Shown: piece by piece, positions 29,131-57,765 of the stretch | How the letters are laid out: each line of letters begins with the position of its first letter | Numbering within the stretch: position 1 is the first letter of the stretch | NCBI GenBank assembly: GCA_964187785.1 | Contig: OZ076409.1 | Coordinates: forward strand, 47,122,001 to 47,186,000 | Reading direction: 5' to 3' | Source: Amphiscolops sp. MND2022 | Taxonomy: Eukaryota | DNA length: 64,000 nucleotides | Notes under the pieces: model-generated | The model's input: only the letters and a program-made list of their open reading frames with translations | What the model was told of the DNA's origin: nothing | The model's database searches: none | Program-made: the position numbers and the translations under genes

Positions 29131-29293
29131 TTTATGTAAAATTGACTGAGCATTCTACAATTACATAAATATACACACACACATGTTTACGAAGTAGCAC
29201 TTGGTGGGTCCGTACACGAAACGGGCATAAGGTGGGACGTACACACTTTTCCCTTTGTGGGACATACACAAAAACTTTAACTTGGCTATTAAA

Positions 29294-30301: not shown

Positions 30302-30305
<4 letters not shown>

Positions 30306-30338
<33 letters not shown>
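30306..30338 (+). repeat. (AC)n microsatellite, ~16 units
   Basis: Seen directly; a shorter (AC)n-CATGT occurs at ~29173. Confidence 0.95.
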
Positions 30339-30341
<3 letters not shown>

Positions 30342-34300: not shown

Positions 34301-37300
34301 ATCCACATGACGTGTCAGTTTTTGCACCATAGTGGCATTTTCTGGTTCAGTGAAGGGACAGTAAGGACAACATTTTGTTTTTCTGTGTTTATTCAGGGCG
34401 ACTTGAATTTTGATCTTCCGAAGAAATTTAGCATTGAATTGGCATTGTCCTGTTTGTTGGACGTACTTCTCCATTACAAGTTCCATTTCCTGATCGTCCA
34501 TTTCTTGGGTATCCGTTGAAGTTGTAGCTGACTTGTAAGAACTTTCACTAATCTGACTGATACCTTCTGCATTCAAAACAACTTCTTTGGTTATTCCAAC
34601 CAGAGGACCGCATTTCTTCGTTTTTGATCTTGTTCGTTCCAATGGCTCATCTTCCGATGGGTATTCGCTGCTCACATCCTCATCGTCCGTGTCATCATCA
34701 CTTCCGGGAGTGAATCGATCGCTCGACGAGGTGGACGAATCTTTACTAGAATCTTCAGTTGTTCCACTGGAACATGGGGGCTGCGATTCTTCGTCGCTTG
34801 AGCATTGTTCGGAGACGGATTCTTCGCTTTCTTCAGCTTCCGGTTTCGGCTGTAGGTATTGACGGCCCTTGGCGAGCAGTTTTACAGCTCTGGTTGTTCC
34901 CTTCCTGGGTGTCAACTGCAAAACAACACACTAAGTTGAACATCACTATCAACCAATTGAAATGTTTTCGGTAAAACTTCAACAGAAAAACAGCAATTTT
35001 CATTAGCAAAACCTTAGAAACTCCGCCTTCAATTACTTTTCGCTTTATTCCAAAACATCTTTTTTCTACAATTGTTTTTTGACCAGTAGATGTCTCACGA
35101 AAGAAACCAAGGGGCTCCGGCATTCTGAATTTTGGAGAGCTAGGTCGAACATGCGACGTATGTTCGACCAAATGTGATGAACTTTTATGCGAGACGAAAA
35201 ACGACTACTGAAAAACTTTTGTGGTTTTTATCAAGGAAAGTGAACCAAAAGAAAACTAGGTTTACTTTGTGAGGTAGAGAAGTATCCGGAGTTGAAGAAC
35301 TTTCTTCCTTTTTCTGGTATTTGTTCGTCGTCAACCTTTGAACAGATTCCTCGATAGCTGAGTCTATGTTCTTCGGCTTCTTGGCTTGCGGCTGTTTCGT
35401 TGATGTCAGGGTCGGCTTTTTGACAGCCTTTTTTTTTATCTCCACTTGCTGTTGGTTGTTGAAGCGGTTCAGCTGGTCTTGATGCTCCGCAAATGGTTGA
35501 TGATCTCACTGGTCCACTTTTAGAAGACAACGCTGCGACGGACGGCTCATTCGCGTCAATGACAGATGCCAGTTCCGAAGCATGTTCATCAGCAACATCT
35601 GGCTTGGCTTCTCCACTTTTAGCTGGTGGTTTCGGATCAACTATCTCGCCGACAGCTGGCTTGGCTTCTCCACTTTTAGCTGCTCCTTTCTGAGCAAGTT
35701 TCTCTCCGACAACTGGCTTGGCTTCTCCAGTTTTAGCTGGTGGTTTCTGAGCAACTTTCTCTCCGGCAGCTGGCTTGTCTTCTCCAGGTTTGGCTGGTGG
35801 TTTCTGAGCAAGTTTCTCTCCGACAACTGGCTTGGCTTGTCCAGGTTTGGCTGGTGGTTCCGGAACAACTATCTTGCCGACAGCTGGCTTGGCTTCTCCA
35901 CTTTTAGCTGTTGGTTTCTGAGCAACTTTCTCTCCGACAGCTGGCTTGGCTTCTCCACTTTTAGCTGGTGGTTTCTGAGCAAGTTTCTCTCCGACAACTG
36001 GCTTGGCTTGTCCAGGTTTGGCTGGTGGTTCCGGAACAACTATCTCGCCGACAGCTGGCCTGGCTTCTCCACTTTTAGCAGGTGGTTTCTGAGCAACTTT
36101 CTCTCCGGCAGCTGGCTTGGCTTCTCCAGTTTTAGCTGGTAGTTTCGGAACAACTATCTCGCCGACAGCTGGCCTGGCTTCTCCACTTTTAGCTGGTGGT
36201 TTCTGAGCAAGTTTCTCTCCGACAGCTGGCTTGGTTCCTCCAGTTTTAGCAGGTGGTTTCTGAGCACCTTTCTCTCCGACAGCTGGCTTGGCTTCTCCAC
36301 TTTTAGCTTGAGGTTTTGAAGTAAGTTTCTCTACGGCAGCTGGCTTGGCTTCTCCAGGTTTAGCTGATGGTTCCGAAACAACTATCTCTCCGACAGCTGT
36401 TATGTCTTCTCCACTTTTAGCTGGTGGTTTTGAAGCAAGTTTCTCTCCGACAGCTGGCTTGGCTTCTCCACTTTTAGCAGGTGGTTTTGAAGTAAGTTTC
36501 TCTCCGGCAGCTGGCTTGGCTTCTCCACTTTTAGCTGATGGTTCCGAAACAACTATCTCTCCGACAGCTGTTATGTCTTCTCCACTTTTAGCTGGTGGTT
36601 TTGAAGCAAGTTTCTCTCCGACAGCTGGCTTGGCTTCTCCACTTTTAGCAGGTTGTTTTGAAGTAAGTTTCTCTCCGGCAGCTGGCTTGGCTTCTCCACT
36701 TTTAGCAGGTGGTTTTGAAGTAGGTTTCTCTCCGGCAGCTTGCTTGGCTTCTCCCCTTTTAGCTGGTGACTTCGGAGCAACTTTCTCTCCGGCAGCTTGC
36801 TTGGCTTCTCCACTTTTAGTTGGTGACTTAGGAGCAACTTTCTCTCCGACAGCTGGCTTGGCTTCTCCACTTTTAGTTGGTGACATAGGAGCAACTCTCT
36901 TTGCGACAGCTGGCTTGGCTTCTCCAAGTTTTTTTACGACAGCTGCCTCGGCTACTCCAAATGTAGTTGGTTGTTTTGAATCATCCTTTCCTGAGGCAGT
37001 TGCTCTGAGTGCCACCACGCATTTCGAGAAACCTTTTACTACACCGGCTGTCTGTTCCGACTTCTCATCTTCGGTTTTTGATTCGGAATCAATATTCTGT
37101 GTAATGTTGGCTTTCGATTCTGGTTTTGACGTTTCTATTTTCTGGACCTGGTGTTTTAAAACAACTCTACTTCTGGTCTTCGGCTTCTCTTCCTTTGTAA
37201 CAGCTGATTTGTTTGTAACGTAGAATTCTTTTGTAGAATTTGGGTTTTCCAAATTAACTGGTGTCTCACTTTCGGGAACCGCGGTGTTTTTTCGCCACTC

Positions 37301-40300
37301 GGCATTTGGGAAGCCATAATCATATCGCAGCTCTTCTCCTTAAACAAGGTTGCACGTGAATTTTTCAAATAAAACTCATTTCTTTATCTGCGAAGAAAAA
37401 CACTTGTGTTCCTTTTAAGCTTCCCCTTATTCCATTTTCTAAAACTAGATATCAATTTTCCTGTGCCCACGTAAATAGTTTCTTGCTACCCGCTGGTGAC
37501 AATATTATATTGTTGTTTTCTCCAGTTTCATTTTTTGGCGATTCGAAATCTATCAAAATTTTTCTTTCAAAATTGAAACTATGAAAATTTTCAAATCAGT
37601 CAAAAATATTTCTGAATTATATCAAAACTTATTCTATTTTTGGACAATGTAATTCGATTCATGTAAAACGGACTCAGTATGATGCTGTTTCTTACTAGCA
37701 GAAGTTCGGACTGGCAGTTAGTAAAATTTGTCGTCGTGTTTTTACAGTCACAAGGTCGTACTCGCACTTGGTAGGACATGACTGATTTTACAAGCACATG
37801 GTCGGACTTGCACTTGATTGATCATGATGTTCAAGCACCACGCGTTGCTACTGTTGTCGCTGTGACCCACCAATGTATATCTTGTAATTAAAAAAATGTC
37901 AATTTTTCGAAACCAATTTTTTGTTCAATCTAATGGCACTGGCATCCTCAGACTTGGGGGCAAATGGTTAACGAAACAATTTTCACGGATGTTTTTTCCA
38001 CAATGTGATGGTTGGAAAAAATGCTAACTTGATAAACTTTTTTTCGAAGTTACAATTGTTCTAATTTTGGAACTCTTGTTGCAGAAATTCCATTGAAACA
38101 TTTTCAGAGATACCAAAAGTTCTAAAACTTCCCTTGATGTTTCGTATTTCTGGCACTTTCTTAACTTATTTGTTGTTGAACTTTGTAATTTTAGGCAAAA
38201 GAGCTGCGGTATTTTGAAACGCGTTCGCACAAAGGTATATTTTTGGTAAAGTAATTGGTTGTTTTAACTTCAAAGGTTCTATCTTATGTTAGTGTTGTTA
38301 GTATTGTGGACAATCCCGCTATCGCGCGATTGTCGAGCTCATCTTTTGGGGACAGCTCGTTACAGTATATGCAAATAGATGGATATGATGGTCCAATGCC
38401 AATAACGACTGCGTTACACTATTTCAGTTTTTCTGCATTGCGCCAAAAATTTGAATTTAGCAAATATTTTCAATTGTTTGCTGGAGTCGACCGTCATTCC
38501 GCGGCAGCCCTTCGCGCCACTTCATGTCGGTTTTTGTCAAAACGGGCTGCTTGCCAAGTAATGTATTGTCTCTCCGCTTTGCTGCCTTGCTGCACATAAG
38601 TGCATACTAGGTGCATAAGAACATAGCTGATTACATTATCATAATTAGTTCATTGGTGTTTAGCACACAAACTCAATCACTTTGCTTTTTCCCTAATTCA
38701 ATTTTCAACCAATCAGAAGCGTTTAATAAACGTTTTTGGCGCAATGAAAAGCTTACTAAATTTCAACGTTTAGGGAAACGGCCAAAATTCTGGCGGTTAC
38801 CAGAAAAAGTCCATTTCGAGGGATTGTTTAAAAAGATTACGTACCAAATAACAAGAGCAAATAACAAAAACAAATTTAGTTTCAAATAACATTCAATTGA
38901 AAGTAATTTCTTATAAAATAAAAATCAAACTGAATACTTGGTTGAAAAATTGAACTCACGTAATTTTATCTGTAATTTTTAATACTTTTTTCAGTGAATC
39001 CTTTGAATTTTCTATAATGTTGAACACTAAAACTTTCTCGTGTTTTTATTTGCTCTAATGCTATTTGGGAATTCACCGTTTGAAAACAATTTTGCTCAAT
39101 GTCATGCAATTTAGAAATTATGGATAAGATTTGGGATTTATGCTAAGCCCCATCCTGGTTTAAAGACGTCACCTGGAATCGAGAAACTTGAACACCTCTC
39201 AAATAGGGAACTTGATTTGAGCCTATCAAATTATGTACTTACTTATCCCTGGAACTTTTGCCAAAAGTGATTGGAATATCAACGCCCTGTGTTAGTGAGT
39301 TATCCCAACTTAGATGATTATATACATTCCGTATAATGAAACAATCTGGAAAGCAGTGATGTCCATTTATAATAAAATAAATGATTTTTCATGTGCCAGT
39401 GGAAAGGACAGAAAAAACTTATACAGCTCGTGGACTCTATTCCAAGCAACGCTCGGTGTTCGTGAATTTTTTCACGACTTGGTCGAACATGAACACTACT
39501 TTTCACTATCGGGTTAAAATAGCAACGCCCGGTGCTTGAATTCTATAACGACTTAGTCGAACATAAACACTACTACTTTTTACTACCTGGTTAAAATAGC
39601 AACGCCCGGTGTTTGAATTCTATAACGACTTAGTCGAACATAAACACTACTACTTTTTACTACCTGGTTAAAATAGCAACGCCCGGTGTTTGAATTCTAT
39701 AACGACTTAGTCGAACATAAACACTACTACTTATCACTACCTGGTTAAAATAGCAACGCCCGGTGTTTGAATTTTATGGTGACTTGGTCGAACATAAACA
39801 CTACTAGTTTGTGTTTTAAAATAGCAACGCCCGGTGTTTGAGCTTCATTACCACTTGGTCGAACTTGAACATTATTTTTCATTCCCTGTACACGAAAGTT
39901 ATTTTTCAACGTTATATATGGCTCTTTGCTGCAAAACATCCGCTCTAATGCTCAATGTTGACCCATGATAATCCTATTTCCCAAAGAAAAAACCGAAAAA
40001 CGTTCAAAAGGGCCTAATGAGAAGTTAACTTGGGCTCCGCGACAGTACCAAAAACGAACAGAAAACGCGATTTTATATGCAAGAACAATATGTTTGAAAT
40101 ATAAATAGAACGTTTTTCAAATTGCACTTGGTGTGGCCTTACCCTGTACTTTACTAAGCATCGATGGGACTTTTTAACGCAGTCGTGTTTGTTTTCAATC
40201 ACCAAGTAATTTACTGATTGCTCTCTCCTAATTGCCAGCTTGTATGCAAAGCTCTCAACTTGGTTCATTCACCACCCAACACCCCATGGGGATGGCAGGG

Positions 40301-41400
40301 TTTATTGACGCTTCGCTTATTATTGTTTAAAAAATAAATAGGACGTTTTCGAAAATGCACTCGGTGGGACCTGAAACTAGTTTACTAAGCATTGATGGGA
40401 CTTTAACCGCAATCTTGTTTGTTCCTATTCGCCAAGTAAATAAGTGGTTGTCCCCTTCCTGATTAAACTCAAATCAACAGCTTGTATGGCAAGTTCTCAA
40501 CTTGGTTCATTCACCACCCAACACCTGACAGGCGGATAACTATACTCTATCTTAATTTTTAGCACTTTTTTCAATCGATAAACTATTCGGAATCAATTAG
40601 TGGGACATACTTTGTGGGAATTGAAAAATTACTAGAGCGTGGTCATGTGTCAAAAATATGGAAGTAAGGGACCATGTGTTCAATCCTCCTCAAGGGGCCG
40701 CTACTTGTCAGTTGAAAGTTATTCTTTTAAATTTTAAGGCGAAGAAAATTTGCGTTTGAAGAACATAGTTTGAACAAAATTTGTATTTGAATCTCAAACT
40801 GTCAAAATGAAATTAGTTTCCAATATGAACGTTTAAGGTGCTAAGTTTAAGTCTTTTACATTCGAACACTGTCACTGATTTCTCAAAACATTTCTGACTG
40901 TCATTTTGACTGTTTTTTGGTAGCAACTAAATCTGGGTTTCAATTACTTGAGAATTCTGGGAAACATTACAGAAGATTGTTCCACAATTTGAAAAATTAA
41001 ACTGACCTGGAAGAATAACACGAGTTGCCAGGAAGATGCAATGTGGTCTGCCGTCGTCGTCATGAACCTTTTTCATTCGACAGTTGGCGGCAACTGATTT
41101 GTCCTTGTCGTTGATAAACCTCGCCAAGCCAGAGTTCGTCTCATCGGAAGTGTCAATGAACACTGTGTCTTTTCCCTCCTGAACTTCCATCACGTAGTCA
41201 AAGTTGGCGACTTGAGTTGCTCTCCTCGGCCCCCAATAACTCAGGAGAAACTCTTGCGCTTCAAATTGCTTTTTCACGAAAAGCCCTCTTCCAGTCGTTC
41301 CATTGGCGAATTTGACGGTCTGGACAATGAAACCCTCCGGATCAGAATAGAGGAAGTCTTTCCACGATTCAGTTTTTCGCGCAGCACTACGAGTAGACAT
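31312..41400 (-). CDS. SET-domain / tyrosine recombinase fusion protein, ~1726 aa, 5 exons (one +1 homopolymer frameshift at ~35430)
   Basis: Exons 41400-41007, 37338-35266, 34915-33447, 33049-32275, 31782-31312, all GT-AG and phase-compatible. The splice rebuilds SET motif ILPG|EELRYDYG. YR motifs: FNKKR, PGKGGK, STKLRK, FLGH, HDKYY. C-terminal W..W..VRN Myb/SANT-like region. Confidence 0.85.
31855..32175 (-). repeat. ~96-bp tandem repeat with the AGCAACGCCCGGTG core in reverse orientation, in the last YR intron
   Basis: CACCGGGCGTTGCT at 31962, 32059 and 32154. Confidence 0.85.
35600..36950 (-). repeat. 57-bp coding minisatellite (19-aa PAKSGEAKPAVGEKLASKP), about 23-24 copies, in exon 2
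   Basis: Visible in the DNA and in ORF 35231..37252. Confidence 0.95.
39445..39870 (+). repeat. 77-bp tandem repeat with the AGCAACGCCCGGTG core and a GACTT(A/G)GTCGAAC motif
   Basis: Core at 39521, 39598, 39675, 39752 and 39823. Confidence 0.9.
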
Positions 41401-41840
41401 GGTTTTCTGAAGAGCAAGAAAGGTAGGGTTTTGTCACACAGAGCAGTTCAACCAAAAATTAACATCAATAAAGCCAATGAAATATGAACTCTACATTATA
41501 ATAAATAAGTAAACCTTTTAGTGTTCAACTGAAACCGTTCGATTATGTTTTAGAATTTAGGAAGAATGAAAAAATGTGCTCAATGACAGTGTTGCTACTA
41601 GGAGAAAATTCAATCGAGAAAATCTAATACTTTGCGGATTTATGGTGTCTACTTTTGATCCGGAAAAAACATTAGTGAGTCAAAATACTGTGATTCATTG
41701 TTTTAGCGAGAAAAAAAGAACAAAATTTTGAACCAATGTTGTCAGTTTTGAAAGCAAAGAGTTCTCAAGAAATCAATGTCAGCTTCGAATTGAAGAAAAG
41801 CCAAAGTTTTCATTGGTCTGGTCACGCTCCCATTTTCTGT

Positions 41841-43938
41841 TCAATTTTGTTGGTCCCAAGATTCTATTTCGTCCCAGTGGAAGTCCCAAGTGGATTCGCA
41901 GTACATGTAGAGGAAAACCTCCCAGGGGCTCTCGAAGGGCTCTTTTCCTTTGGGGTGTCTACGTTGGTCAGCCTTGATGATAGCCAGCATCTTCCTCAGC
42001 TCAACTTTACTGACAGTGCTCTCTGAACGATGACGATATGACCACTCTCTGTAGAGGAATATGACAACCAAGGCTTCAAAGTGAGGAAATGCAAAGGAGG
42101 GTTGGAAACCTTGTTCGAGTTCCTTCTCGAAGGCCAGGGCGCTCCGATACATGTGCTTCTCCATAATGAAGATACAGCCAAACGCCACGCTCTCTTCCGG
42201 GGTGAACACAAAATGAATCCATTGACTGGGTAAGAACAGACAATCGCCTTTTTCTAGCACTATCTGATGCGTTGTCACGTCCCGGTGAAAGCCGAAGAAG
42301 AATGAACTGAAACAGAGAGCATGTTGAAGAAGCAACTATTAACCCATGAATTGGTCATAGGGATCTAAAATTCACTACCGTTCGTTCATCGCGCACATAG
42401 TTGTCATATATAAAAATCGGTGGTAGATTAATACCATCGATCAATAGCAACGCTCGGTGCTGGAAAAAAGTAACAATTGTTGCGACCTAAATTTGAGATA
42501 AAAAAGGAACGCCCGGTGCTGGAAAAAAATTAATTATTGCGGCTTCATATTTAAGATGAAGAAGCAACGCCGTGATGGAAAACGAGAGTGTTTTTAGGAT
42601 TCGAACGAAAAAGCAATCGATCATTGATGCTTCTCCAACGTTCTAAAAATTGAAGAAAAAACCTAAAAAATACTTTTGAATTTGTACCTATTTTTCAGAA
42701 CATTTATGACGCAAGCAAAGCTCCTGATCATGTGCCTTGAATAAAGTCTCACTTACTTTCTGTTACCGCTCGCAAGCCATTCCTCAAAAAGCTTTTGATT
42801 TTCCTCGGTTGGCTCCACAACAAAGAAGTGTTTCTGGCCCTTTGCCAAAATGTAGAAAATGGATGTGCCCGTGAAGTCCTGATGCCAGTTAGTTTGCGCT
42901 CCAGCTTCTGACATCAGCAGGTAGTCACTAATTCCTGATGTGAAATCAAATGCCAACTGGTTTTTGGGGCTCATAGAATTCTTCGTGCAATGGCCAAAGG
43001 AAATGTCCGTCACTATATTGGGCAAACAAAACCGGTGAACCATCCCGCTCTTTGAATCCGCGTTGAAGTCAATCACATTCATCGGATGATATTCATGCTC
43101 AAGGCTGCGGTCTTCATTGTGCTCAAGAAACTCCTCCAGAGTGAATTCATCTTCATTTTCTTGAATCGGAGAGAAACAGACATTAATTTTGACCTCCCCT
43201 GGAATTCCCTCTGTTACACAACGAAAAGACGTCAAGCTTTCAGCAGGAGGAGTTGCGATACCAGGAAGTTTGTTGGTACACTGGCGTATAACAACAGGTT
43301 TTGAAGGGCTCCCGTTGCAAAACTTGGATCTAATATCGTCCACATTCAGCACATCAAAATCATTTGTGGCAGGCGGTGCTTTTGCAAACACATGCTGCTG
43401 GAATTCCACAGAACCAACTTTGACTCCAATTGGGGGAAGCGAACTGAAGTTTGTTGAGTAAGAAGCGACGCCCTCCACGGCAGTCTCCAGCTGTTCCTCG
43501 ACCGCGACTTCGGTTGTCCTCGGAGGTGTTTTTTTTGAATCTTCAGCTCTCTCTTGAACGTCAACCGCTTCAGCACCCGTAAGAGTTTCTTCGGATGAGA
43601 CTTCACTTCTCTCTCCAAGAGAAGCAAGGGTTTCCAGTTTAAATTGAAGCGACTCGTCACTTGAGAAAGGAGGGCTCTCATCCGCGAGAGATCGTCGTTC
43701 TGGGGTCTCTGGAACAAACGGTTCCAAAACTGCGCTTTGGTCGACAAGATTTGCACTTTCCTCAACTGCACCAGAGGATGTAGTGGGCTTTTGTTCCAAA
43801 AACGTGAAAGTTGTCGCCGTTTGGGAAGTACTGGTTGTGGCTGGAGCAAGATGGTACTTTTTTTGTGCCGCGTTAGATCAAAACTTCGAGTCGTTGTCGT
43901 GCCACAAAATTCACACTCGAAGATACCTTTTTGGCGTT
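41841..43938 (-). CDS. C2H2 zinc finger plus JmjC 2-oxoglutarate/Fe(II) oxygenase, KDM2/KDM7(PHF8)-like histone demethylase; 5' end incomplete; one homopolymer frameshift at ~43860
   Basis: Exons 43938-42757 and 42306-41841 join in phase 2. YLLMS..TNWHQDFTGTSIFY..GQK..PT and LFLPSQWIHFVFTPEESVAFG give an intact HxD..H triad. CEFC..LTRHKK(K)YH finger. Confidence 0.85.
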
Positions 43939-44329
43939 CTGAAACATAAGACTCGTTATGCGAAGGAATCAAACGGAAGCCAAAAAGAATGCTACAATAT
44001 TCGACTTGGTGCCAGTAAAAAAGTTGGTTATAATCGAAGTTTATCGATCAATCTTAGATGTAATCTAGTCACTGTTCATGCGGTGCAACACCCGGTGCTG
44101 GAGAATGAGACTGTTCCTTAAAACTCGAAGAAAAAGCAACGCCCAGTGCTACAAAAATGAGGTTAAAACAAGCGCGACACAATTCAACTAGCCACTGTCA
44201 TGAATACTATATTGGTATTTATTTATATATTATTCAGGACAGGGCTTGTCAAACTATGCCAGAGACAGGTTATTCTAACATATCTCCCTGAATTTCGTTT
44301 TTTGTATTCAATTAAAAAAGAAGTATCGA

Positions 44330-47310
44330 AACACTTTTTGACGAAAATCACTTTCTGAGTTTTTCATTGAAATCTTTTTCAGAAACACAGGATCTTTTTC
44401 TCAAAATATTGAAGAATAGTCTGTATTTCCAACCGCCACTTGCAGGAAAATACAGTCCAGGTTGAAATTTAAAAACACAGCATAACAATTTCTGACAAAG
44501 ACTGCATCAGACTTCATTCATTGAACTTCGTTGAATGAAGCGAGAAGGTCTTGGTCCCAAAAATGTTGAACGAAGAATCGAGAAACGATATCAACTTTAC
44601 TACCAGTAACAATGTTTTTCGAGTGGAGCAGAAATTAAAAAAAACCATCAAACACTCAATTAAACTACCAGAATTCCTTCACCTGGATTCATTCAACCAA
44701 AACAAATCATTGTAACAAACTTTCAAAATGTTAAAATTTAACATGTCGAGCAGATTAGAACTGCACCATGTGTCTTTCAAGGAAACCATGTTGAACAAAA
44801 CAAGGAAGTGCCGGCTTCGAAAAGGATCCATCCCTTACTTCCTTCAACACAATTTTCCGCGCAGGAACGAAAAAAAATGTTTAACGCGACGTATTTGATC
44901 TGAGAAGCAACTCTCCTGCTATAGTGTAGTGTTCATATAGTCCGAGCATTGCACCCAACTAAAAGAGCGTCTGAGGTTCGATGTTCATTTGAAATTCTTT
45001 ATACGTACAAATGGAAAGAGTTCTACGAAGTTGTAACAATTTTATCGAAAAATTTTCTCTCCAGAACCCACTTGGTTTATTTCTTGGGAAAATCAAGAAA
45101 AAATGAAGGAAAAGAGGAAAAAATCTGACTTTTTTAGCAGAAACGATTACGCACTTGCCGTGGCGTTCATGTTCGACCTATGCTGCTGAGTTTTCAGTTG
45201 CTGAAAGGGTGAAAATCATAGTGAAAGGTCGAACATTCTACAGGAGTTCGACCTTTGCCCCTAATTGTGATTACCACAGCACACAATGAATCTCGTGATC
45301 GCTTATCTCATTTCGTGATTTTATGTCGACAAAAATTGGGCTCGGAACCAATTGACGAGGTTCAACTTGATTGCATCGCATTTTTTTGAGAATTCTAGCG
45401 TCAATTTGAAACTTGACACCTTAATCATTTCAAACTAGCAACGCAAGGTGCTGGTGATTACTACATCTTTACTGTACTTTAATCTGAAAAAGAGCTAGTG
45501 AAAAAGCAGCACCCGAAACTTGAAATATGTTTGAAAAGAAAATTTTGATTAGATTTTATTGCTGAGAAAATTTCTTTTGAAATAGGCGCCTTTAACACAA
45601 AAAGACATTTGGTCTTTTGGGACAAAAAGGTTTGAAAATTAGGGGAAAATAAAATCACAGCAATTTTCGTAACGAGTGTTCGTAAAACTTCCGGACCGCG
45701 CGTCAGCGTTTTGCCCTTCTTTCATTTTCACATGTTACCAAGGTTTAATTTCAAACAAATTGATGTTTTTATGTAACCGAACAACCGTTCAGGAAAAGCA
45801 ACGCCCGGTGCTGAAAAAAACACAATGTCAATGTGATTCCGCCTTAAAATTTGGACAAAAATAGCAACGCCCGGTGCTGGAAAAGATTGGGTTTTTGCGC
45901 AGTATTGTTTTCATTTAGAAAAGCGTGGCCCTGTGCTGGAAAACTGGACTGTTATCGAGCCTTATAGTTTGAACGGAAATTGTAACGCCCGGTGCTAGAA
46001 AAACGAGTTTGTTATTGTGCCTGAAGAGTTGAACAAACATAGCAACTCCCGGTGCTGAAATAGAAAATTTTCGCGCCTTGTTGTCACGACTCTTCAGACG
46101 GACGACTGTCTGGTGATAAGAGTCTGAGTCTACTTAAAAGAAACTTAGTTTATTCAAAGTATCAACTACGATGTAATTTGCTCTCAGAACCTATTTGTTT
46201 TCAATATTGATTTTTCAAGTTTCTATCAGGGAGGTACTAAAGGAAACATGCTCGACGTTGATCACCTGGACATTGACCCAAGGGATATAATGGTTTTCAT
46301 ATATCAATCGGGACGACGTCTAGTTGAATCAGGTCAAAAAATTGCATTCGAAAGAGTAACAACTTTATCCGAACCCTTCGTGACACTTTCGTTTTGTGAT
46401 TAGAAAAATGAAAAGTCCCGCGTGAAAGAAAGAAAAATGAACTGTTTACACTTGAAAACGGAAGACAAGAAAACAGATATTGCGATTCTTCTCGAGTATG
46501 ATACATAGGTTCTACGAAAGACTTCTGTAAACACATAACGTAACACTTTCTGACGAAGACTGAATCAGACTTCTTTCATTGAACTTTTTTGAATAAAGCG
46601 AGAAGGTCTTGGTCTCAAAAATGTTGAACGAGGAGTCGACAAAGGACTTCAACCATTACTACAGGTAACAACCTATTTCGAGTAGAACAGACTCAAAAAA
46701 TAAACGTAAACGCTTGTTCAAACCACCAGAATTTCTTCATGTGGTTTCATTCATCTAATGAAAAGTATTGTGACAATTTGATAAAAAGGTCGTTACAATT
46801 TCAGACTAAGACTGCACCATGTTCATTTCAGTGGAACTATATTGAAGCACACAAGTGGGTCTTGGGCTCGAAATGTTGAAAGCGATGAATCGAGGAATCG
46901 TTCCCTCCCTTGCTCTTCCGGTAACAAAACATTCCGACCAGAACGAAACAAACATCATTTTACGTGACACATTTGGTCTGGTCGCCAATACTCCTGCTAT
47001 AAGGTAGTGTTCATATAGTAAGAGCATTGCGCCCAACCGTAAGAGCGTCAAAGTTTTTGTTATGTATATGATGTTCTTCACACATACAGAAGGAATGAGT
47101 TCTACCGAGTTTAAAACTATCGAAATGTTTTCTATCCAGGACTCAGTTAGGATTTTCTCTCGAAAAATTTTGAATAAAAGAAAATAGAGTAAAAACAAAA
47201 TTTTTTTAAAGCAGAAACGATCATGCAGCTGCAATGTCGTTCATGTTCGACCTGTGCTGCTGGGTTTTCAATTGCTAAGAGGGTGAAAATCATAGTCGAA
47301 GGTCGAACAT
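44330..47310 (+). repeat. Diverged ~0.9-kb direct duplication (~44330-45260 and ~46380-47310)
   Basis: Shared blocks such as AAGCGAGAAGGTCTTGGTC, ACTGCACCATG and GGGTGAAAATCATAG..GGTCGAACATTCTAC. Confidence 0.8.
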
Positions 47311-49579
47311 TCTACATTTCATTTTATACAAGTTAATTTAATTAATTTAATTTTACAAGCTTTAATTTTAAACAAACTGATGTTTATTATACACTTGGAC
47401 AGCCAAGCAGAAATGCAACTCCTGGTGCTGGAAAAAAAATTGGGAAAGGTTTTCGGCCCCAAAATTTGAACAAAAAGCAACGCCCGGTGCTGGGAAACTA
47501 GACTGTTATTGGGCGTTAAACTTTGAACGGAAAGAGCAACTGTTGATTTTTGAAGTTTCTACAGGAAACACGCTAAACATAGATCACCTGGATATTGACC
47601 CAAGGGATATAATGGTTTTCATATATCACTCGGGACAACGCTTGGTTGAATCAGGTCAAAAGATTGTATTTGAAAGGGAAGCAACAATTTTTATCCCAAC
47701 CTTTTGTGACACTTTCGTTTTTTGCTTGGAAAATTGGCTAGCAAAAATATATTAAATATATTGTCCATCTTGATACATGTATTTGAAAAAAATCAATTTA
47801 ATCAAAAATTCATTTTCTTTTGACTTGTTCAAAACACTAAAGATTTTTGTTTTATTCCAGCAAGGGGGGTTCGTGTTTGAAATTAAAATACGCGTGAGAA
47901 TTTCCTAACGCGTATATATATATATTTGTGTTTTAAAAAAACAATAAGTTTGATTGAGTATTTCAAACAAAAATTTGAAAATAGGTTTTTCGAAAAATCA
48001 ACTGACAACACATCAATTTCATTTTTTTTTCATTGTTTAGTAAAATCAAGCATTTAATGTTATTTCAGTTTGCGGGGTCAATTTGAATATTTCAAGTTTT
48101 AAGGGGACGAGAACTTCCTAAAGCTTCCTAAAACTTCCTATACCGAACAATAATTTGAAATTAACTGTATTTCAAAAAATGAACTGAGTTATCTAATCAT
48201 GAAGTAAAGTTCAACGTTCAAAAAAATCGAAGTTTTAATTTTTCAATGTTCCTGTTGGGGGGGTTTGATTATAATAATTTGTGAATGTGCATGAATTTCC
48301 AAATGCGCATAACGTTTTGATTTCTGAAAGTTTAAGTCCGACTTACAGTATTCCAAGCAATAAACTAATTTCATGAATTTAATTCAAAAGAATTAGTTGT
48401 TTCAAACGTAGTTCCAGTTGGGGAGATTTGATCAAACCAATTGATAATATTATTTTCTGCATTATATAATTCCCAACCACCTTATAATTCTCAACCACTG
48501 AGCGTTGCTATTTTAATGAACAACCAATATGAAAACATTAGCCGAAAGGATTTTGTCAGGACTACAAAAAACCGAGTTAGTGTCAAGCAGCTCTCAACAC
48601 TCATTTGCAACTCAATTATCGGTTCACCTTCAGACACATACAATTGCGTATACTGTAACGAGCTTCCCCTAACGAATGATGAACTTGACAGCGTGATTAA
48701 CCACTACACTAACTCGGTTTGAAGAGAAGCAGTTTTAACTTAATCATGCAAGATTACGTACCAAATAGCATATAAGAGAAAATAACGAAACGAAATTAGT
48801 CCCATTCAACGAAAAAGCAAAATTAGTTTCATAAAAACATTTAAAAAAACCGAATACAGTTAAACAATTAGCTCACGAATTTTGTCTCTAATGTTGATAC
48901 ATTTTTAGTGAGTGTTTTGAATTGTGAATGCTTTTGACCACAAAAACTTTCTCGTAAACAATTTTATTGTTTCCTGAAAAGCATTTCATTTTTTTAATTT
49001 GAAACCTTTAGTTTATTTGCTATTATGTTAGTTCGACCTTGTGCTGGTAAAAAAGTCTCATGTCCTACCAAGTGCGGGTCCGACCTTGTGCAATTAAAAT
49101 TACGACCGCATATAGGAGATTAACACAAAATGTGTTGTGCAAAAGCTGATTTCATGCTTTTTTGCTCCTTTCCTAAAAACTATACACAAGTGTCCAGCGT
49201 CACCAGTGATGACTTTACACGAGGGGGTGCCCTCGTTCAGAGTTTAACCCTGAAAAACAGCAAAGGAAGAAACCCCCTCCTGTTTTAGGTTTTTAGCCAT
49301 GTTTGGGATCAAAATTTTCAAACTTGCTGTTAGGAATAGTGGGTTGAAATTCCATTGATTGCCTTGCAAACGTTTTAAGCAGCACTAACATGCCCCCCGT
49401 TGAGAAATTTCAAACACCGCCCCTGTGCGTAACGGAAAGAAAAATAAACTACAATTGGAAACTGAAGACAAGAAATGAGATTACTCTTATTTCAAGAACG
49501 ATACATAGGTTCTACGAAAGCTTCTGTAATTGAAGACCTTTTAAAAAAGGTTAATTCCCAAATAGCAAACAACATAAGT

Positions 49580-50250
49580 CTTGAAAACTAGACTGTTACT
49601 GCAACTTAAGATTAGAATAAAAGAACAACGCTCGGTCCTGGAAATTGAGACTATGACTGTGCCTTAAAATTCGAACAAAAAAGCAACGCCCGGTGCTAAC
49701 AAACTAGACTGTTATTGCGCCTTAAAATTCGAAGAAAAAAGCAACGCCCGGTACTGGAAATTGAGACTATGACTGTGCCTTAAAATTCGAACAAAAAAGC
49801 AACGCCCGGTGCTAACAAACTAGACTGTTACTGCGCCTTAAGATTCGAAGAAAAAAGCAACACCTGGTACTGGAAATTGAGACTATGACTGTGCCTTGAA
49901 ATTCGAACAAAAAAGCAACGCCCGGTGCTAACAAACTAGACTGTTACTGCGCCTTAAGATTCGAATAAAAAAGCAACGCCCGGTATTGGAAATTGAGACT
50001 ATGATTGCGCCTTAAGATTCGAAAAAGAAAGCAACGCCCGGTACTGGAAATTGAGACTATGACTGTGCCTTAAAATTCGAACAAAAAAGCAACGCCCGGT
50101 GCTAATAAACTAGACTGTTACTGCGCCTTAAGATTCGAAGAAAAAAGCAACGCCCGTTTCTGGATATTGAGGCTGACTGCACCTTGAGTTTCGGGAAAAA
50201 GCAACGCCCGGTGCTGGGAATTGAGACTGACTGCGCCTTGAGATTTGAAA
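49580..50250 (+). repeat. 58-bp tandem repeat with alternating A/B monomers (116-bp higher-order unit), AGCAACGCCCGGT core
   Basis: Core at 49682, 49740, 49798, 49856, 49914, 49972, 50030, 50088, 50146 and 50200. Confidence 0.9.
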
Positions 50251-50327
50251 AATACCTGAGCCTAGTAAAACAAGATTAAAATAAAAAATATTTAACAAAA
50301 TAAAAATTGAAAAAGCAAACAACTTAC

Positions 50328-50517
50328 TTGGAGGTGGTGAAGGAAACTCACTGGGTTCCACAGCTTCTTTTTGTCGCTTCTGACAAGTCTTTTTAGCAAC
50401 ATGCTGCTGCAATTTGGTCGTGCTTGCGCAAATTAACCCACATAGTTGGCAAGTGCAGCGGAAAATGCTTTGAGCTTTTCGTGTTCTTTGGCCTTAAAAA
50501 CAGAATCGTGTGAAAAC
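50328..50517 (-). CDS. Probable upstream zinc-finger exon of the JmjC gene (6.4-kb intron); 5' part out of frame
   Basis: Encodes CQLCGLICASTTKLQQHVAKKTC. The phase-1 GTAAGT donor at 50327 fits the acceptor at 43939, giving PPP-K-RQKGIFEC. Confidence 0.5.
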
Positions 50518-53500
50518 CTGAGAACTGATTTGGAAAACACAATCTCATGAGTTTATCAATAAATTGATGATTGATTTTTACGATCGATAAATTTTGATTG
50601 ATTTTTTATCGAAAAATTGATGATTGATGAAATAATTTTTGGACAGCCCTGCAAATGAATGATCAAGCAAATGAAATGAATTTTCAACAGAGGCTTGGAC
50701 GCAAACCAAGAACCTTCAATTTTATTTAAATCCAGGTACAATTTTTTTTCACAAGCTGTTTTTGACTGTTTTTGGTGGTGGCGGTGAGGGGGATGGTTTG
50801 TTCAATAATTTTTGTTCACGGTGAATTCCCAGATAACACAAGAGCAAATAACATAAAAATTGAATTAGTTTCAAATAACATGAAAATAAAATTGTTTACG
50901 AGAAAGTTTGGATCTTTTGTTAATCCCCCCTACCGTTTTAATTCCCCCCAGTTTTTATTACTCTATATTACTCTACCTTTTTTTAACTCTAACAGCAACT
51001 GAAACTCATCTCTGTTACGAGGGGGGGTGGTGTTTCATAATTTTCTCTGTGGGGGAATTAACAGCAAAGATCCGAAAGTTTTAGTGTTCGAAGCATTCAC
51101 AATGCAAAAGACATTCACTGAAAAAGTATGAGAATTACAGATAAAATTTAGTGAGTTCGATTGTTTAACCGGGTATTTGGATTTTTTTTTGAAACTAATT
51201 TCATTTTTACGTTTAATGGAAAGAAATTCGCTTTTATGTTATTTGCTCTTATGTTATTTGGTACAAAATCTTTGTTTACTAACCCAGGCATCTTGATTGA
51301 TGGCGACTGAACAACCACTTCTGATTGGCTTGGAATTCCTTCGCGCAGTGAGTGCAGTGTAAAGGCATATCTTGTTCCAAGAATGATTGATTATCATTTT
51401 TTTAGTTTTCAATTTTGAATTTGAAAAAGTTTTAAATACAATGTTGTACGTCCTTGAGTGCAACCATTATATCGTCGAAAAGAAAATTCAAAACTTTACT
51501 TCACTTTTCGAAACAAATGAGAAAACTGAAACATAGAAACCAAAAGAAAAATGATCATCACTGATATCGGTGGAAATATTGTGATTTGAATAGGCGAGTA
51601 GACGATAGGTATTCAAATTTTGATTGAGAGAGCGAACGCAACTGAATGATAAAGAGAGTGGATATTGAATGGCGACTGCGCTGGAAGAAGCGATGAGTCA
51701 CATGAGTCACCGCTTTGAACTCCGCAGCTCGCTTTGTTAGAATCATAAACAAACATTGCTTGCACGACGCTGCATCGTTCAACTAGTGGAATTTCCACCG
51801 CACTCCTTTTTTCGTCGACAAAACCAAGAAAGTTGACTCCCAATAAAAGAGCGGCAGCTCGGAATACAAACTCAGCCTCCTTTCATTTCAAACAAAACTT
51901 GGTTTCAAAACCCGAACATCGAGTTGAATAAAGAATGTAAACAGAAAGTAGTTACCGAACTGCGCTGCTCGTGATTTTTTTCTTTTCTTTCGATTATATC
52001 AAAGGAACAGAGATCAAACAGCTTTAGTGTTTTTTTTTGGGGGGGGGAGGGAGAATTTCCCAACAAGGTGTACCTTGGAAATAGATGACATGGTCCGATT
52101 TAAGAAATAACTGGTTGGATTTTATGCCTTTTGGTTTCTATAAGAACAGTTTTCAAAAAGTAAACTGAATAAATGAATCCTAAATTAAATTTTATGAATA
52201 ATGTAAATCAAAGATATTTTTATTGAGGGGGTGGGGGGCGGTGGTTTGTTTGGTACATGTATTTAAAAAAATCAATTTGATCAATAGTTCATTTTCCTTT
52301 TACTTGTTCAAAACAATTTTCTTTTCATTTAAAATATTCTCCAGAACTGCAATCCTTTTCAATACAAAAACAAGATATAGAGACCGAATTCTATATTCTT
52401 CTCACGTATACCGAACAATAATTTGATATTAACTGTACTTCAAAAAAACGAACTGAATTAACTAATAAAGTTCAACGTTCGGTAAAATCGAGGTTTTGAA
52501 TTTTCATTGTTGTTCCAGTTGGGGGGGGTTTGATTATAATTATTAAATAATTAATAAATTTGTGAATGTGCATGATTTTCCAAATGCGCATAACGTTTTG
52601 GTTTTTGAAAGTTAAGTCCGACTTACAGTATTCCAAGCAATAAACTAATTTGATGAATTTAATTCAAAGGAACTAGTTGATTGTTTCAAACGTTGTTCCA
52701 GTTGGGGAGTATTTGATTAAACCAATTGATTTTTTTCCATTATATAATTCCCAACCACCTTATAATTCTGAACCACCGAGCGTTGCTATTTTAAGCCGAG
52801 TCAAACAACCAAAATGAAAACATTGGTGAATTTCCAAATAACATTGGGAATAAGAATGCCGAAAACATTATCTGTAAGGATTTTGTCGGGGCTATAAAAA
52901 ACCGAATTAGATAGTGTCAAGCATCGTACAACACGCAAATGCAATTACCGGTTCACCTTCAGACACATATAATTGCGTATACTGTAACGAGCTGCCGCTA
53001 ACAAATGATGAGCTTGACAGCGTGATTAACCACTACACTAACTCGGTTGAAAGAGCAGCAATTTTAAGTTAATCAAATAACGCCAAACTCACGTAGCGAA
53101 TACTATATAAGAGCAAATTACAAAAACGGAATTAGTTCCATTCAACATAGCGAAATTATTTTCATATATTACGAAAAGCCGAATACCCGGTTAAACAATT
53201 AAACTCACGTTTTTGTCAGTAATTTTAACACATTTTCAGTTAGTCTTTTAGATTTTGAATGCTTTTGACAACTTTCCCAAACAATTTTAATTTCATGTTT
53301 GGTGAAGCTCTTTTCATTTTTATTTTTTTAAAACTAATTTGGTTTTTCATTTGCCATTTTGTTAGTTCGACCTTGTGCTAGTAAAAACAGGTCTCATGTC
53401 CTACCAAGTGCGGGTCCGACCTTGTGCGAGTAAAATTACAACCGCATGTATTAAGTGCAAGTCTTGTGCTATTGAAAAACGGCCTCATGTCCTACCAAGT

Positions 53501-53983
53501 GCGGATTCACGAAAACTGAGTTTACATTTCGCTCGATCAACTGACTTGCTTTGTGATTTTCAAAATCGTTGTAGATAACTAGAAATGACAGATGCTATAT
53601 AGCAAACGAAAATTCCTGAAAATTCAGGTGGTCAAGATAATTATGAGAATAAATTTCGTTATATAACTGAGAATTCTAGTTTATTACTGCCAGTCAATTT
53701 CTATGTTTGTAGCTACAAACAGCAGTAGTTGACTGGTTGATAACTTGCTTGAGTTATCTCGGTTCCCGAATTTCAAAGCTCTTCGAGACAAAATAACGTG
53801 TTTTTGTTACGGTTCTAGTAACCTATTCACAATAACCCTTGTAGCCTATATTAACACTCAACTTATCTCGTGCCAAAACCAAGTATGTGTTCTATAAATT
53901 CAATTCAACCAACAGAGAAAAACAAATAGTTGAAGCGAGAAAACAAATTCAGAAATAAGACTGTTTTTGAAAATTGAAAGTTT

Positions 53984-54316
53984 TTAAGCTGCTCTTGATA
54001 GTGGGTAAATCAGCTGCATGTAGGTCACGGCGTCTTCCAGCGCAGGGTCAGTGTTTTCCAAGGCATGGTAGCAAAGAACTTCATAGAGTCTTATAAAACT
54101 GTGTGACTCTGGATCAATTCGCACTTTGCATTTTCGGGATTTTGGCTGGGAGGGTGACACTAGACCCGAGTACTTGGAACGGTAACAAATTTTCACCGAT
54201 TGGTCTGCGTAGGTCCAACGGAGTCTTGTAATGATTACGTCAACTAATCCGTTGATCTGCATCTCTTTGGGCAGAGTCCATTCGAGGTGTAAATACACTT
54301 TTTGGTACCAAAACAT
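53984..54316 (-). CDS. Hypothetical 110-aa protein, paralog of 58296-58676
   Basis: From ATG 54316 (MFWYQKVYLHLEW..); aligns end to end with the 58296 ORF. Confidence 0.7.
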   Translation of the reverse strand: MFWYQKVYLHLEWTLPKEMQINGLVDVIITRLRWTYADQSVKICYRSKYSGLVSPSQPKSRKCKVRIDPESHSFIRLYEVLCYHALENTDPALEDAVTYMQLIYPLSRAA

Positions 54317-55399
54317 TTGGATGGAAAGAGTGAATACTTGACAGAGAAAAAGAGCGTGGTTGAGATAGGCACACACACACAGGGAGAAAGAGAGAGAGAG
54401 TCGAAAACGAAACTGAACTGACTGATTTGAAACAGCTCTGAACGAAAGAATGAGCCAGTGGAGAAACCAATTACGAGATATATAAGTGAAAAGAGAAAAT
54501 GTACCGAAAAACAAAAGCCTGATGAAGGATGTATTATTCGATAGGAAACCCTGGCAAATAACAAATAATTGCGTTTTCCTCCCTTCGAGAATGAAAGACA
54601 TAAATAACAGCTTTGTTCAATAGTAGAGTATTATCAATTAGCGAATTAAGTTGCTTCATGTTAATCGAATGTAGTCGATGAAAGCACAACACCGCGTTAC
54701 TAAATGATACATAAGGCTAGTCTGTTCAATTGTTCAGCCTGAATCATTTGGTAATTAGGTAAACGGTAGTTGAATTTGTTGCTGGTTGGGCGACTAAAGA
54801 AAAGCATCAAACTGAATTGATGTGATAGTGCCGATACCTCTGCACTCTTGTGACGGTTTGAGGTTGAATTGGTTATTTAAATTTTTTGAGGTGGTCTAAA
54901 ATCACGGATGGTGTACGAGTCTTTGTATTACAAGTCTGATCCTCATACACTAGTAACGAAAGGAATATATTTCCGGTAAAACTGTCTCAGTATTTTGTGA
55001 CCGTTTATGCCAAAAGAAACTTTTAATTTTAATTAGATGGACATTAAAGTTTGTAGATGTTTCGGATCTTGTAGGCTGGGGAAGGGGTGGCATTAGCAAG
55101 CAAGATATGATTTTTTGTCTTTTTTTAGTCATGTAAACTGTAAACAATGTGTATCGGGGGAAAACGACATGATTCGGAATTTTACAAGCATTCGATAGAT
55201 TACATGTCTAAGTTTCACGCATCCAATTTGAAAAAAAAAAGCAATGCAACGCCCGGTGTTAAGTAGATTCGAACCGACATTCTACAGCAGTAAAGTATTC
55301 TATTTTACCTCTCGGCCATAGCGCCTTGATATTGGACGGTTCTATTTTAGTCTTATTCCTATTTGCTCTGTTTAAAGCACTGGTGTTAAACGAAAGACG

Positions 55400-55640
55400 T
55401 AAAAAACCAACGCCTGATGTTTGATCGCACAGCCTATCCAGAACAAAGTGAAAAAGCAACGCCTGGTTTTTGATCGCACAGCTTATCCAGAACAAAGTGA
55501 AAAAGCAACGCCTGGTGTTTGATCGCACAGCTTATTCAGAACGAAGCAAATTAGCAACGCCTGGTTTTAATCGCACAGCTTGTTCAAAAGGAAGTAAAAT
55601 AGCAACGCCAGGTGTTAATCGCACAACTTGTTAAAAAATG
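55400..55640 (+). repeat. 49-bp tandem repeat with the AGCAACGCCTGGT core
   Basis: Core at 55455, 55504, 55553 and 55601. Confidence 0.85.
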
Positions 55641-55644
55641 AACG

Positions 55645-56099
55645 GGACCATGTCATCTATCCCCCCCAGGTACACCTTGTTAGGAATCCCCCCAGCACGA
55701 AAGCACATTTTGTTCTTGAATAAAAATATTTCACTACTTAGAGAATATTATACGAATGTAAATACTTAGCGGATTGTCTCTACAACTGTTGGACACTTCA
55801 GGTAAAAAAACCCTAATTTTTTGATATCATTGTCCAAAATGGCAAAAATTCACGCTTGGAACAAGATGAATTAGTATAAAAAGGCCCCTATTTCAACGCA
55901 AATTTTCTCCGTGATGATATCTAATGAGCAACTTTTAACTGACAGTCAATGTAATGGATAGGATTATGTCGACATCAATTGTTTTATTGGATTAATATTC
56001 TAACGCAAACGATGTCGACATAATGGTATTTGAACCTTGTGACTTATTCCCCCCCCCCCCCGCCGCAGTTGGGGGGGGGGGAAACAGATGACATGGTCC
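55645..56099. mobile_element. 455-bp MITE with GGACCATGTCATCT TIRs and 8-bp TSD (Merlin- or hAT-like)
   Basis: TIRs at 55645 and ending at 56099; AATGAACG at 55637-55644 and 56100-56107. A lone matching end lies at ~52060-52096. Confidence 0.85.
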
Positions 56100-56494
56100 A
56101 ATGAACGATACGAACAAAAATTGCAATTAAATCCTTCAAGAAAATACTAGGGGTTTATAATGTTCTTAACGTCATCAATATTCCAGAAAGAATGGTTCAC
56201 TTTCGAAAAAGTCGCTTTTCAAGGTTATTGGGCGACAAGTTTTTTATTTTATACCTAAATACTTGAAATTTGTCAGTTTCTCACATTTGATTTTGCTTTA
56301 AAAATAGTTGCAATTAATTGCAGCTAAATGCATTCAAATCAATAAACTTTTTAATTGCCTGAATTCAAACAATTAAAACTTAAACCACTTTGATTGCAAC
56401 GCCCAGTGCAATCAGCGTTGTGCAATAAATAATTTATTTGAAAATAATTCAAAGAAATAAAAATACCAATCTTTATTCTAGTTTCGTCTTCTAG

Positions 56495-56825
56495 TTTTAG
56501 AATGAACGTATTAAAATAGCAACGCCTGGTGCATCGCTCAGAGTTTGATTTAGAATGAACGAATTGGAATGAACGAATAAAACTAGCAACGCCCGGTGCT
56601 CGCGCAGTGTATAATTTAGAATGAACGATTAAAAATAGCAACGCCCGGTGCTCGCGCAGTGTATAATTTAGAATGAACGATTAAAAATAGCAACGCCCGG
56701 TGCTCACGCAGTGTATAATTTAGAATGAACGATTAAAAATAGCAACGCCCGGTGCTCACGCAGTGTATAATTTAGAATGAACGGATAAAAATAGCAACGC
56801 CCGTTGACTCGCGCAGTGTTTGATT
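56495..56825 (+). repeat. 52-bp tandem repeat with the AGCAACGCCCGGTG core
   Basis: Core at 56585, 56637, 56689, 56741 and 56793, plus 56518. Confidence 0.9.
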
Positions 56826-57203
56826 TACAGTAGTTGACTTAGACGTCAATCAAAACTAATATAATGATAATCCTCAATGTATTTTTGTGAAATACTCTAC
56901 AGTAGTGATAATCAGGAAGAATAAATTCGGGCACTCATTTTCTCAAAACGGCGGGACTTCCTTATGCGAATTCGGTACTCCTATTTCCTAAATCGACACT
57001 CGAAAATAAACGAAGAAGCAATGAAATTTTTCATTGATATTTAACGAAAACAAAAGGTATTGAAAGTGATCACAAATGTTTCAACACATATTCCAGAAAT
57101 ACGCGTTCGAGTTCGGGTTCTTGGTTGTTTTACAGATAAATTCAACCAGCGGCATCGTCGGCAATCGTCTTGGTTTTGAGACTATTTGTTTCTCAGCATC
57201 ATC

Positions 57204-57765
57204 TCATCGAAGTCGTGCTTGGAATGGCTTGACATGAATATTGTTATTGGGCCGCCACAGATCCTCTTGTTCTTCCATGAAATCCGTCACATTCTTGAGC
57301 ATCTTTTCGTGTCTAAACAGGATGAACGGTATACAAAAATTTGCCGGCTACAAAAAGTTCTTAGAATTTTATCTAGTTTACAAAAATGTTTATTTGAAAG
57401 TCTCCTGACAAAAATTACAAAGTTAAGATTGTAAATTTTGACAAAATCAAATTTGCATTTTTTTCTTGATTTTCACAAAGTTGAGATAGTATTTTTGAAA
57501 ATTTTTTAGTCAATCATATGCCCCAAGATCTGAGGGTTATCCTGTGTACCAAACACATCATGATATAGATTCTTTCGTAATACAAAAACCAGATTCCAAC
57601 ATAGAAACTCTAAACGATTTAGAACAATAATTACCTTATCTTTCCGTCAGGGTAAACCACACTATTGTAATAGCAGTATCCAACTTTCTTGGGGGTTTGT
57701 GACTTGATCTCAATGGCGGCGAAGTTTCCATTTTGTAGGATTATTGTCCCTGTCGCTTTCAGCAT
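57204..57765 (-). CDS. Possible small two-exon hypothetical protein (~79 aa)
   Basis: ATG 57765 MLKATGTIILQNG..; exons 57765-57635 and 57312-57204 are phase-compatible; minus-strand TATAAA near 57979. No homology support. Confidence 0.3.

Follow-up and report, generated by a model that had tools for sequence, protein, structure and literature searches.

The locus examined here raises the question of whether a gene for a JmjC histone demethylase preceded by zinc fingers belongs to the host animal or to a mobile element, and, in the latter case, whether its product may be directed to the element's own DNA. The window is a 64,000-nucleotide (nt) stretch of the genome of Amphiscolops sp. MND2022 (contig OZ076409.1, positions 47,122,001 to 47,186,000); all coordinates are positions in this window unless otherwise indicated, and G000 is the genome searched. 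The finger-JmjC gene is carried by a DNA transposon of the tyrosine-recombinase type that is present in many copies and assigned to family 1; the main features of this element are as follows:

30338..64000, minus strand: 33.7-kb DNA transposon, family 1, with the finger-JmjC gene as cargo, extending ~64 nt past the window on the right
30306..30338, no strand: (AC)n microsatellite, the insertion site
30344..30363, plus strand: left copy of a subterminal inverted repeat of 20 bp, whose partner stands at the right end
32275..33060, minus strand: tyrosine-recombinase-like core (R..K..R..H..Y motifs), travelling together with the JmjC gene
33443..34915, minus strand: exon containing Cys/His motifs, located upstream of the recombinase core
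41007..41400, minus strand: SET-domain exon, closest solved relative SETD8/KMT5A, with an in-phase splice to the EELRYDY exon (37338-35266)

Five further copies align from ~30330 to ~64064-64082 at 95-99% identity with differing flanks, and CA repeats were present at seven of the eight left junctions examined. When the JmjC exon was searched against G000, the best 150 of 1,237 candidates were scored, including 52 full-length matches at 88-100% identity, followed by a group at 83% and then a large group at ~49%. Across copies, the recombinase-like open reading frame (ORF) and a finger exon lie at fixed distances from the JmjC exon. The recombinase core has no Pfam match; its atlas neighbours include animal hypothetical proteins (0.97-0.98) and the phage integrase family PF00589 (0.91), and homologue searches recovered unnamed close relatives only. 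These neighbours and the style of the introns point to an animal host. A viral origin was rejected, as a scan of viral contigs revealed no relative and the ORFs of the element included no viral hallmark gene; metagenome contigs likewise contained no relative. No fusion of SET and recombinase is proposed, trial splicing having joined the SET exon to the EELRYDY exon and no further.

The finger-JmjC gene comprises four exons, encoding in order finger 1, finger 2, finger 3 with an acidic linker and half of the JmjC domain, and the remainder of that domain. These exons, together with two lesions of the window copy, are listed below:

51284..51368, minus strand: exon 1, ATG and finger 1 (Cx2Cx14Hx3C), 55% identical to family 3 at an equal length of 85 nt, with a phase-1 donor
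50328..50492, minus strand: exon 2, finger 2 (Cx2Cx12Hx5C), with weak zf-C2H2-type Pfam matches
42757..43938, minus strand: exon 3, finger 3 (helix R-x-x-D-L-x-R-H), acidic linker and N-terminal JmjC half with HQD
41841..42306, minus strand: exon 4, C-terminal JmjC half with the third His, helical tail and stop codon
43858..43864, minus strand: A7 run, frameshift of the window copy, common to its closest sister (L002)
42171..42173, minus strand: Ile codon at the position equivalent to PHF8 Asn333, which is Asn in other copies and families

An earlier, sequence-only reading of this DNA described a two-finger gene with C2H2 fingers in place of the PHD and CXXC reader domains. The placement was correct, with three zinc fingers N-terminal to the JmjC domain and no PHD match, whereas the ATG exon with a further finger (51368-51284) had been overlooked and was brought to light by comparison with a distant family. 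The C2H2 label was mostly wrong; fingers 1 and 2 are Cys3-His, and finger 3 ends in His in the subfamily of the window copy only, being Cys3-His, with a terminal Cys, in most relatives. The reported CQLC finger exon does join in phase (6,389 nt upstream, phase 1), but its start had been placed at 50517; the true start is 50492 because the acceptor at 50517 leaves an in-frame stop and that at 50492 is conserved. The length of this exon is 165 nt in the window copy and 177 nt in the majority of copies. Finger 3 is similar to C2H2 fingers that bind DNA, and the Arg/Asp/Arg at its base-contact positions is conserved across relatives 40-60% apart. The finger is also present in the unnamed closer relatives P0025, P0029, P0034 and P0036. 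The join between fingers 2 and 3 was seen in none of the 92 database proteins inspected, all of which are ORF-type calls in which splicing is not visible. The gene ends with a stop codon ~100 residues past the JmjC domain. Exons 1 and 2 are flanked on both sides by an internal duplication (48139-49111 and 52407-53447, ~80-84% identity).

The JmjC domain is split over 43938-42757 and 42306-41841 on the minus strand and matches Cupin_8 and JmjC_2 in Pfam, with no match to Pfam JHD. Its closest solved proteins are KDM2A and PHF8, and alignment to these bears out the earlier description of intact iron ligands (HQD at 42884-42876 and the third His at 42215-42213) and of the 2-oxoglutarate positions, at which T, Y and K are present. 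The closest solved structures to the relative P0034 are PHF8/KDM7A (expectation value E 7e-24 by sequence and 3e-23 by Foldseek), and its structure model consists of a beta-beta-alpha finger (predicted local distance difference test, pLDDT, 65-79), a disordered linker and a KDM7 fold. Judged by sequence, the JmjC domain is KDM7/PHF8-like. Asn333 of PHF8 has been assigned a role in the methyl-lysine substrate pocket (PMC13632499), and the equivalents of Tyr234, Phe250 and Asn333 are kept in sister copies and the other families. The window copy, with Ile for Asn, is the one exception among the 12 family-1 loci readable at that position. We infer that the domain of intact copies is catalytically active, with a substrate probably drawn from the KDM7 set of H3K9me1/2, H3K27me2 or H4K20me1. 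A broad set of further JmjC proteins (P0100-P0177), with HPMN and HxDF(T/S)GT signatures, falls outside canonical KDM2/7, and these are possibly mobile-element genes of other organisms; no fingers were present in the called ORFs of distant JmjC relatives with the HPMN..HxDFTG signature.

The closest solved structures being KDM2A and PHF8, the gene might be taken for the host's own KDM2/KDM7 orthologue. A search with JHD, however, located one host gene, at G000:C4:53.02-53.03 Mb, which has a canonical DFHIDFGG motif and a PHD-like exon, and no second canonical paralogue was present among the 150 scored candidates found with the host exon. A quick tree of 46 proteins placed the element enzymes with unnamed divergent proteins (Shimodaira-Hasegawa-like approximate likelihood-ratio test, SH-aLRT, 98), on long branches and apart from canonical KDM2/7, with which the C4 gene grouped; support for the element clade was weaker in a 92-column tree. 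With multiple copies inside element ends, a separate single host gene and a phylogeny that sets the clades apart, host orthology is refuted and retains next to no probability.

The window copy itself is broken twice, by the A7 frameshift and by Ile at the Asn333-equivalent position. As reported previously, a 7-base A run puts its CEFC..H finger and the JmjC domain in different frames; among 30 loci examined this run is mostly 6, 7 or 8 bases long, and the finger is in the JmjC frame at five. A sequencing error keeps some likelihood, as 21 of 35 indels lie in runs of four or more, but real decay is favoured because the closest sister shares the A7 run and neither of two subfamily-2 copies contains an indel. 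Frames are open elsewhere, with 636 amino acids obtained for three of five family-1 sisters (one restored by a compensating pair of indels), 637 for both subfamily-2 copies, and 669 for one of two family-3 copies modelled, namely the element adjoining the window. This modelling covered neither the family-3 copy on C5 nor the family-1 copy on C9, and the C813 copy ends early. Lengths of exons 1 and 2 and splice phases are identical across the open copies of family 1, subfamily 2 and family 3. Between families 1 and 3, identity is 57% in the fingers, 52% in the JmjC domain and 28% in the linker, with synonymous sites saturated, and between family 1 and subfamily 2 the ratio of nonsynonymous to synonymous divergence (dN/dS) of the JmjC domain is ~0.4.

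These comparisons bear on the view that the element captured the gene as a functionless passenger, which persists only because of recent amplification, and that the repeat arrays described below are ordinary products of slippage. Many copies are indeed decayed, and the copies form a star-like tree ~1% deep, as such a passenger might. Against this, the reading frame, splice phases, zinc ligands and catalytic residues have outlasted synonymous saturation, and HxD is retained in 10 families; further, one and the same motif recurs in arrays of unlike units that avoid exons. The passenger explanation is already largely refuted, and we give it very little credence.

The arrays in question share a short motif, AGCAACGC..GTG, of which the window contains 56 sites (≤2 mismatches), all within the element. 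None of the 56 falls in coding exons (7.2 kb), and 41 of 47 cores are on one strand. The longer form AGCAACGCCCGGTG has 2,361 exact matches in G000 versus two for a control, and the 100 matches listed cluster in or near copies of the element. The sequence-only reading held that the element's repeats fill the long intron of the gene; 20 of the 56 sites do lie in its introns, but the motif occurs throughout the element. Its arrays number seven, with periods ranging from 49 to 116 and spacers that mostly score no better than shuffles:

49585..50249, plus strand: 58/116-bp array carrying AGCAACGCCCGGTG, intron 2
45780..46060, plus strand: loose motif array, intron 2
39445..39871, plus strand: 77-bp motif array
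31857..32175, minus strand: 97-bp motif array
55399..55629, plus strand: 49-bp motif array
56500..56827, plus strand: 52/67-bp motif array
60954..61516, plus strand: 49-bp motif array, with a unit unlike the other 49-mer

The core and downstream GTG are retained in subfamily 2 and family 3, and family 3 has a 38-bp motif array, built of another unit, in the same intron as family 1. Families 1 and 3 share the AGCAACGC core, but each has its own terminal-type motif. This pattern supports the view that the motif behaves like a selected binding site, and by analogy the motif shows the hallmarks of plant VANC targets in being non-coding, co-oriented, arrayed and element-specific.

Weaker matches led to seven more families, all with three fingers before a JmjC domain that keeps T-x-W-H-x-D. 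Families 4, 5, 6, 7 and 9 encode a RAG1/Transib-like transposase (assigned by an atlas score of 0.91 for family 4, by tblastn for families 6, 7 and 9, and by eye for family 5), and family 8, as judged by eye, has another recombinase-like ORF and a different SET type, and lies in (TAA)n; no mobilising gene was seen in the stretch fetched for family 10. Examples include elements of 19-20 kb with CATTACG..CGTAATG terminal inverted repeats (L120-L123, G000:C2:9598061-9617017, and L112-L115), which combine the RAG1/Transib-like transposase, SET, an Agenet/Tudor-like ORF and the finger-JmjC gene, and an 11.8-kb element in (TAA)n (L136-L139, G000:C1:50.31 Mb and C6:26.65 Mb), in which the finger-JmjC gene accompanies another recombinase-like ORF and a different SET type. 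Cores of AGCAACGC number zero or one per family in these seven, and other short motifs, which end in GAG(C), are present in families 4, 5, 6, 7 and 8, that of family 4 having 153 matches versus none for a control. The helix of the finger reads R-x-x-D-x-x-R in families 1-3 and R-x-x-N-x-x-R in families 4-5. In a modular zinc-finger table, an R..D..R helix corresponds to GCG/GTG and an R..N..R helix to GAG (PMC5260015), and the motifs of families 1-5 contain these triplets reciprocally (GCG/GTG versus GAG). The triplet prediction was written down before the five new families (6-10) were fetched, of which three yielded a clear short motif. We regard the finger-code result as suggestive, short of proof.

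Taken together, we propose that in intact copies the fingers would bind the element's own motif arrays, where the JmjC domain would locally remove repressive mono- or dimethyl histone marks, such that intact copies stay transcribed and escape silencing, and broken copies such as that in the window would be served in trans. Both the binding of the motif by the fingers and a benefit to the element are predicted, and we consider the proposal as a whole to be evenly poised. A number of observations weigh against it. Cys3-His fingers with long non-canonical linkers often bind protein or RNA, and the three fingers here are separated by linkers of that kind. In the fingers, dN/dS between family 1 and subfamily 2 is ~0.7-0.9 on few changes, dN being about equal to dS, and only three of 25 aligned family-1 copies have an exon 3 without indels, the window copy being itself broken. 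Four of 21 spacer pairs beat nearly all shuffles, and the top 'motifs' of families 9 and 10 belong to longer repeats. The match to the code is weak, with a chance expectation of 0.21-0.28 per motif among families that are related, and covariation of finger and motif can arise without binding because motif and gene are inherited together. In the prospective test the triplet rule scored two of four: families 6 and 8 passed, families 7 and 10 failed and family 9 was not covered. The pass of family 6 is not independent, as it shares the motif of family 5, and family 7 fails on its top-ranked word, its second motif having GAG. Finally, KDM7 enzymes are described as acting on mono- and dimethyl, not trimethyl, marks (PMC13632499).

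Several of these points would fit an active enzyme that serves the element by a less direct route, in which the motif is bound by a host factor or by another element protein, and the fingers bind protein or RNA and so recruit the JmjC domain indirectly. An RFX-type host protein, the half-site of which resembles TAGCAAC, is an example of such a binder. The Cys3-His fingers with their long linkers, the score of just two of four in the code test, and the Cys/His motifs likewise present in the recombinase-side exon would all be in keeping with indirect recruitment. On the other hand, variation of the motif by family fits an element-encoded binder better than a single host factor, families 1 and 3 have the AGCAACGC motif in common but not their terminal-type motif, and finger 3 is like a DNA-binding C2H2 finger with its Arg/Asp/Arg preserved over the distances given above. 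Indirect recruitment is on balance unlikely, although a serious contender.

The SET gene stands beside the JmjC gene in families 1, 3, 4, 5, 6, 7, 8, 9 and 10, which would agree with a third possibility, that the JmjC enzyme and the SETD8-like SET protein form a writer-eraser pair whose shared target is a single mark, for example H4K20me1, or a non-histone substrate, and which times or assists transposition rather than lifting silencing. PHF8 is reported to act on H4K20me1 (PMC13632499), although the pocket is common to KDM7 members with different substrates, so that the substrate is not readable from it. Moreover, family 8 combines the same gene with another SET type, and the element-wide motif arrays are left unexplained by such a pair, which we consider rather improbable. 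Returning to local demethylation at the arrays, a broader generalisation may be offered tentatively and with somewhat less than even confidence: animal DNA transposons with at least three unrelated types of mobilising enzyme may share a swappable, self-addressed chromatin-editing module, consisting of a three-finger KDM7-like demethylase, whose fingers would co-evolve with a family-private arrayed motif, and a SET methyltransferase.

Other features of the element and its surroundings were also recorded. The exon completing the SET domain contains a Lys/Pro/Ala-rich 57-bp coding repeat in 23 copies (35595-36926); elements differ in its copy number, and the repeat found in that exon of family 3 is unrelated. 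A small terminal exon (31315-31488; WP..E..LR..F...YP...WQDIKDK) is 78% identical to its family-3 counterpart and, by eye, may be helix-turn-helix or SANT-like, making it another candidate motif binder. Two ORFs in the element (53987-54616 and 58275-58676) share an 'LY/LNEVL.YHAL.N.DP.LE' segment. A non-coding block at 40090-40600, made up of ~230-bp units and containing the terminal-type motif, is 65-80% conserved with family 3, in which it is placed close to the right end. Adjoining the window on its right (G000:C1:47186084-47207000) is a ~21-kb family-3 element that starts in the same CA tract and has its own SET, recombinase and open 669-amino-acid finger-JmjC gene; this family-1/family-3 tandem pair recurs at C9:3.70 Mb. 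Immediately to the left of the element, and sharing the CA tract, lies a short family-3 relic or non-autonomous piece with a left end and a 67-bp array (29190-30314). Outside the element, the window contains a decayed Ty3/gypsy-type retrotransposon with protease, reverse transcriptase, RNase H and integrase (13628-19909) and an intronless PLAC8-family ORF (10422-11087).

Plants offer proof that transposons can counter silencing in a sequence-specific way, and JmjC genes have already been described in viruses. The literature covered, which did not extend to Repbase Reports, where such cargo could appear, yielded no zinc-finger histone demethylase carried by a DNA transposon of animals. If correct, the proposed mechanism would explain how large transposons remain active in animal chromatin and would provide compact natural sequence-targeted demethylases, in effect a natural library. 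Ten related families in one genome, several of them intact and differing in fingers and motifs, make cross-family binding directly testable.

Among known systems, the KDM7 enzymes (PHF8/KDM7B, KIAA1718/KDM7A and PHF2) resemble the element enzyme in JmjC fold and sequence, iron ligands, cofactor residues and the presence of an N-terminal reader module, as well as in the pocket Tyr/Phe/Asn conserved in intact element copies. They differ in that the element gene has three zinc fingers for the PHD, no JHD match and a multi-copy, element-borne location, and the element enzymes are non-orthologous and fall outside the canonical clade (quick tree, long branches). Compared with KDM2, the element gene has no Pfam match to the CXXC, PHD, F-box and LRR domains that follow the JmjC domain in that protein. 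The plant enzyme REF6, put forward earlier as a parallel, has its fingers at the C-terminus and a catalytic domain of KDM4 type. It stands as an architectural analogy, with a JmjC domain aimed by zinc fingers, while VANC is the closer functional parallel. REF6/JMJ12 of Arabidopsis is a JmjC demethylase directed to DNA sequence by zinc fingers; it is a host gene acting on H3K27me3/2 with four fingers, whereas the element gene is KDM7-type with three N-terminal, mostly Cys3-His fingers (PMC7105484).

CryptonV elements, compared here by description, likewise combine a tyrosine-recombinase-like gene with insertion in microsatellites, which some CryptonV families target (PMC8869645), but the present element is 33.7 kb long with chromatin-enzyme cargo. 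Cryptons are described as having short terminal direct repeats and no terminal inverted repeats (PMC3212892), in contrast to the 20-bp subterminal inverted repeats of the element. Large DNA viruses offer a case of selfish DNA with captured JmjC genes that lack host reader domains and have a proposed anti-silencing role, including reader-less KDM4-like genes of endogenous giant viruses (bioRxiv 10.1101/2024.01.08.574619) and JmjC genes of filamentous viruses (PMC11013392); the viral genes are KDM4-like or unassigned and are described without DNA-binding fingers or a target motif. DNA transposons of oomycetes and fungi that encode SET and TET/JBP proteins also carry chromatin-modifying enzymes as cargo, with no histone demethylase named and zero occurrences of JmjC in the main text (PMC12730594).

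VANC of the Arabidopsis VANDAL elements is similarly transposon-encoded, and its targets are family-specific short motifs in non-coding, co-oriented tandem arrays, also within introns (PMC5735166). It belongs to plant MuDR elements and acts through DNA hypomethylation with proven binding, whereas the protein of the present element has a recognisable enzyme domain and putative binding. If the proposed mechanism holds, the finger-JmjC gene would represent an animal equivalent of VANC that includes its own eraser.

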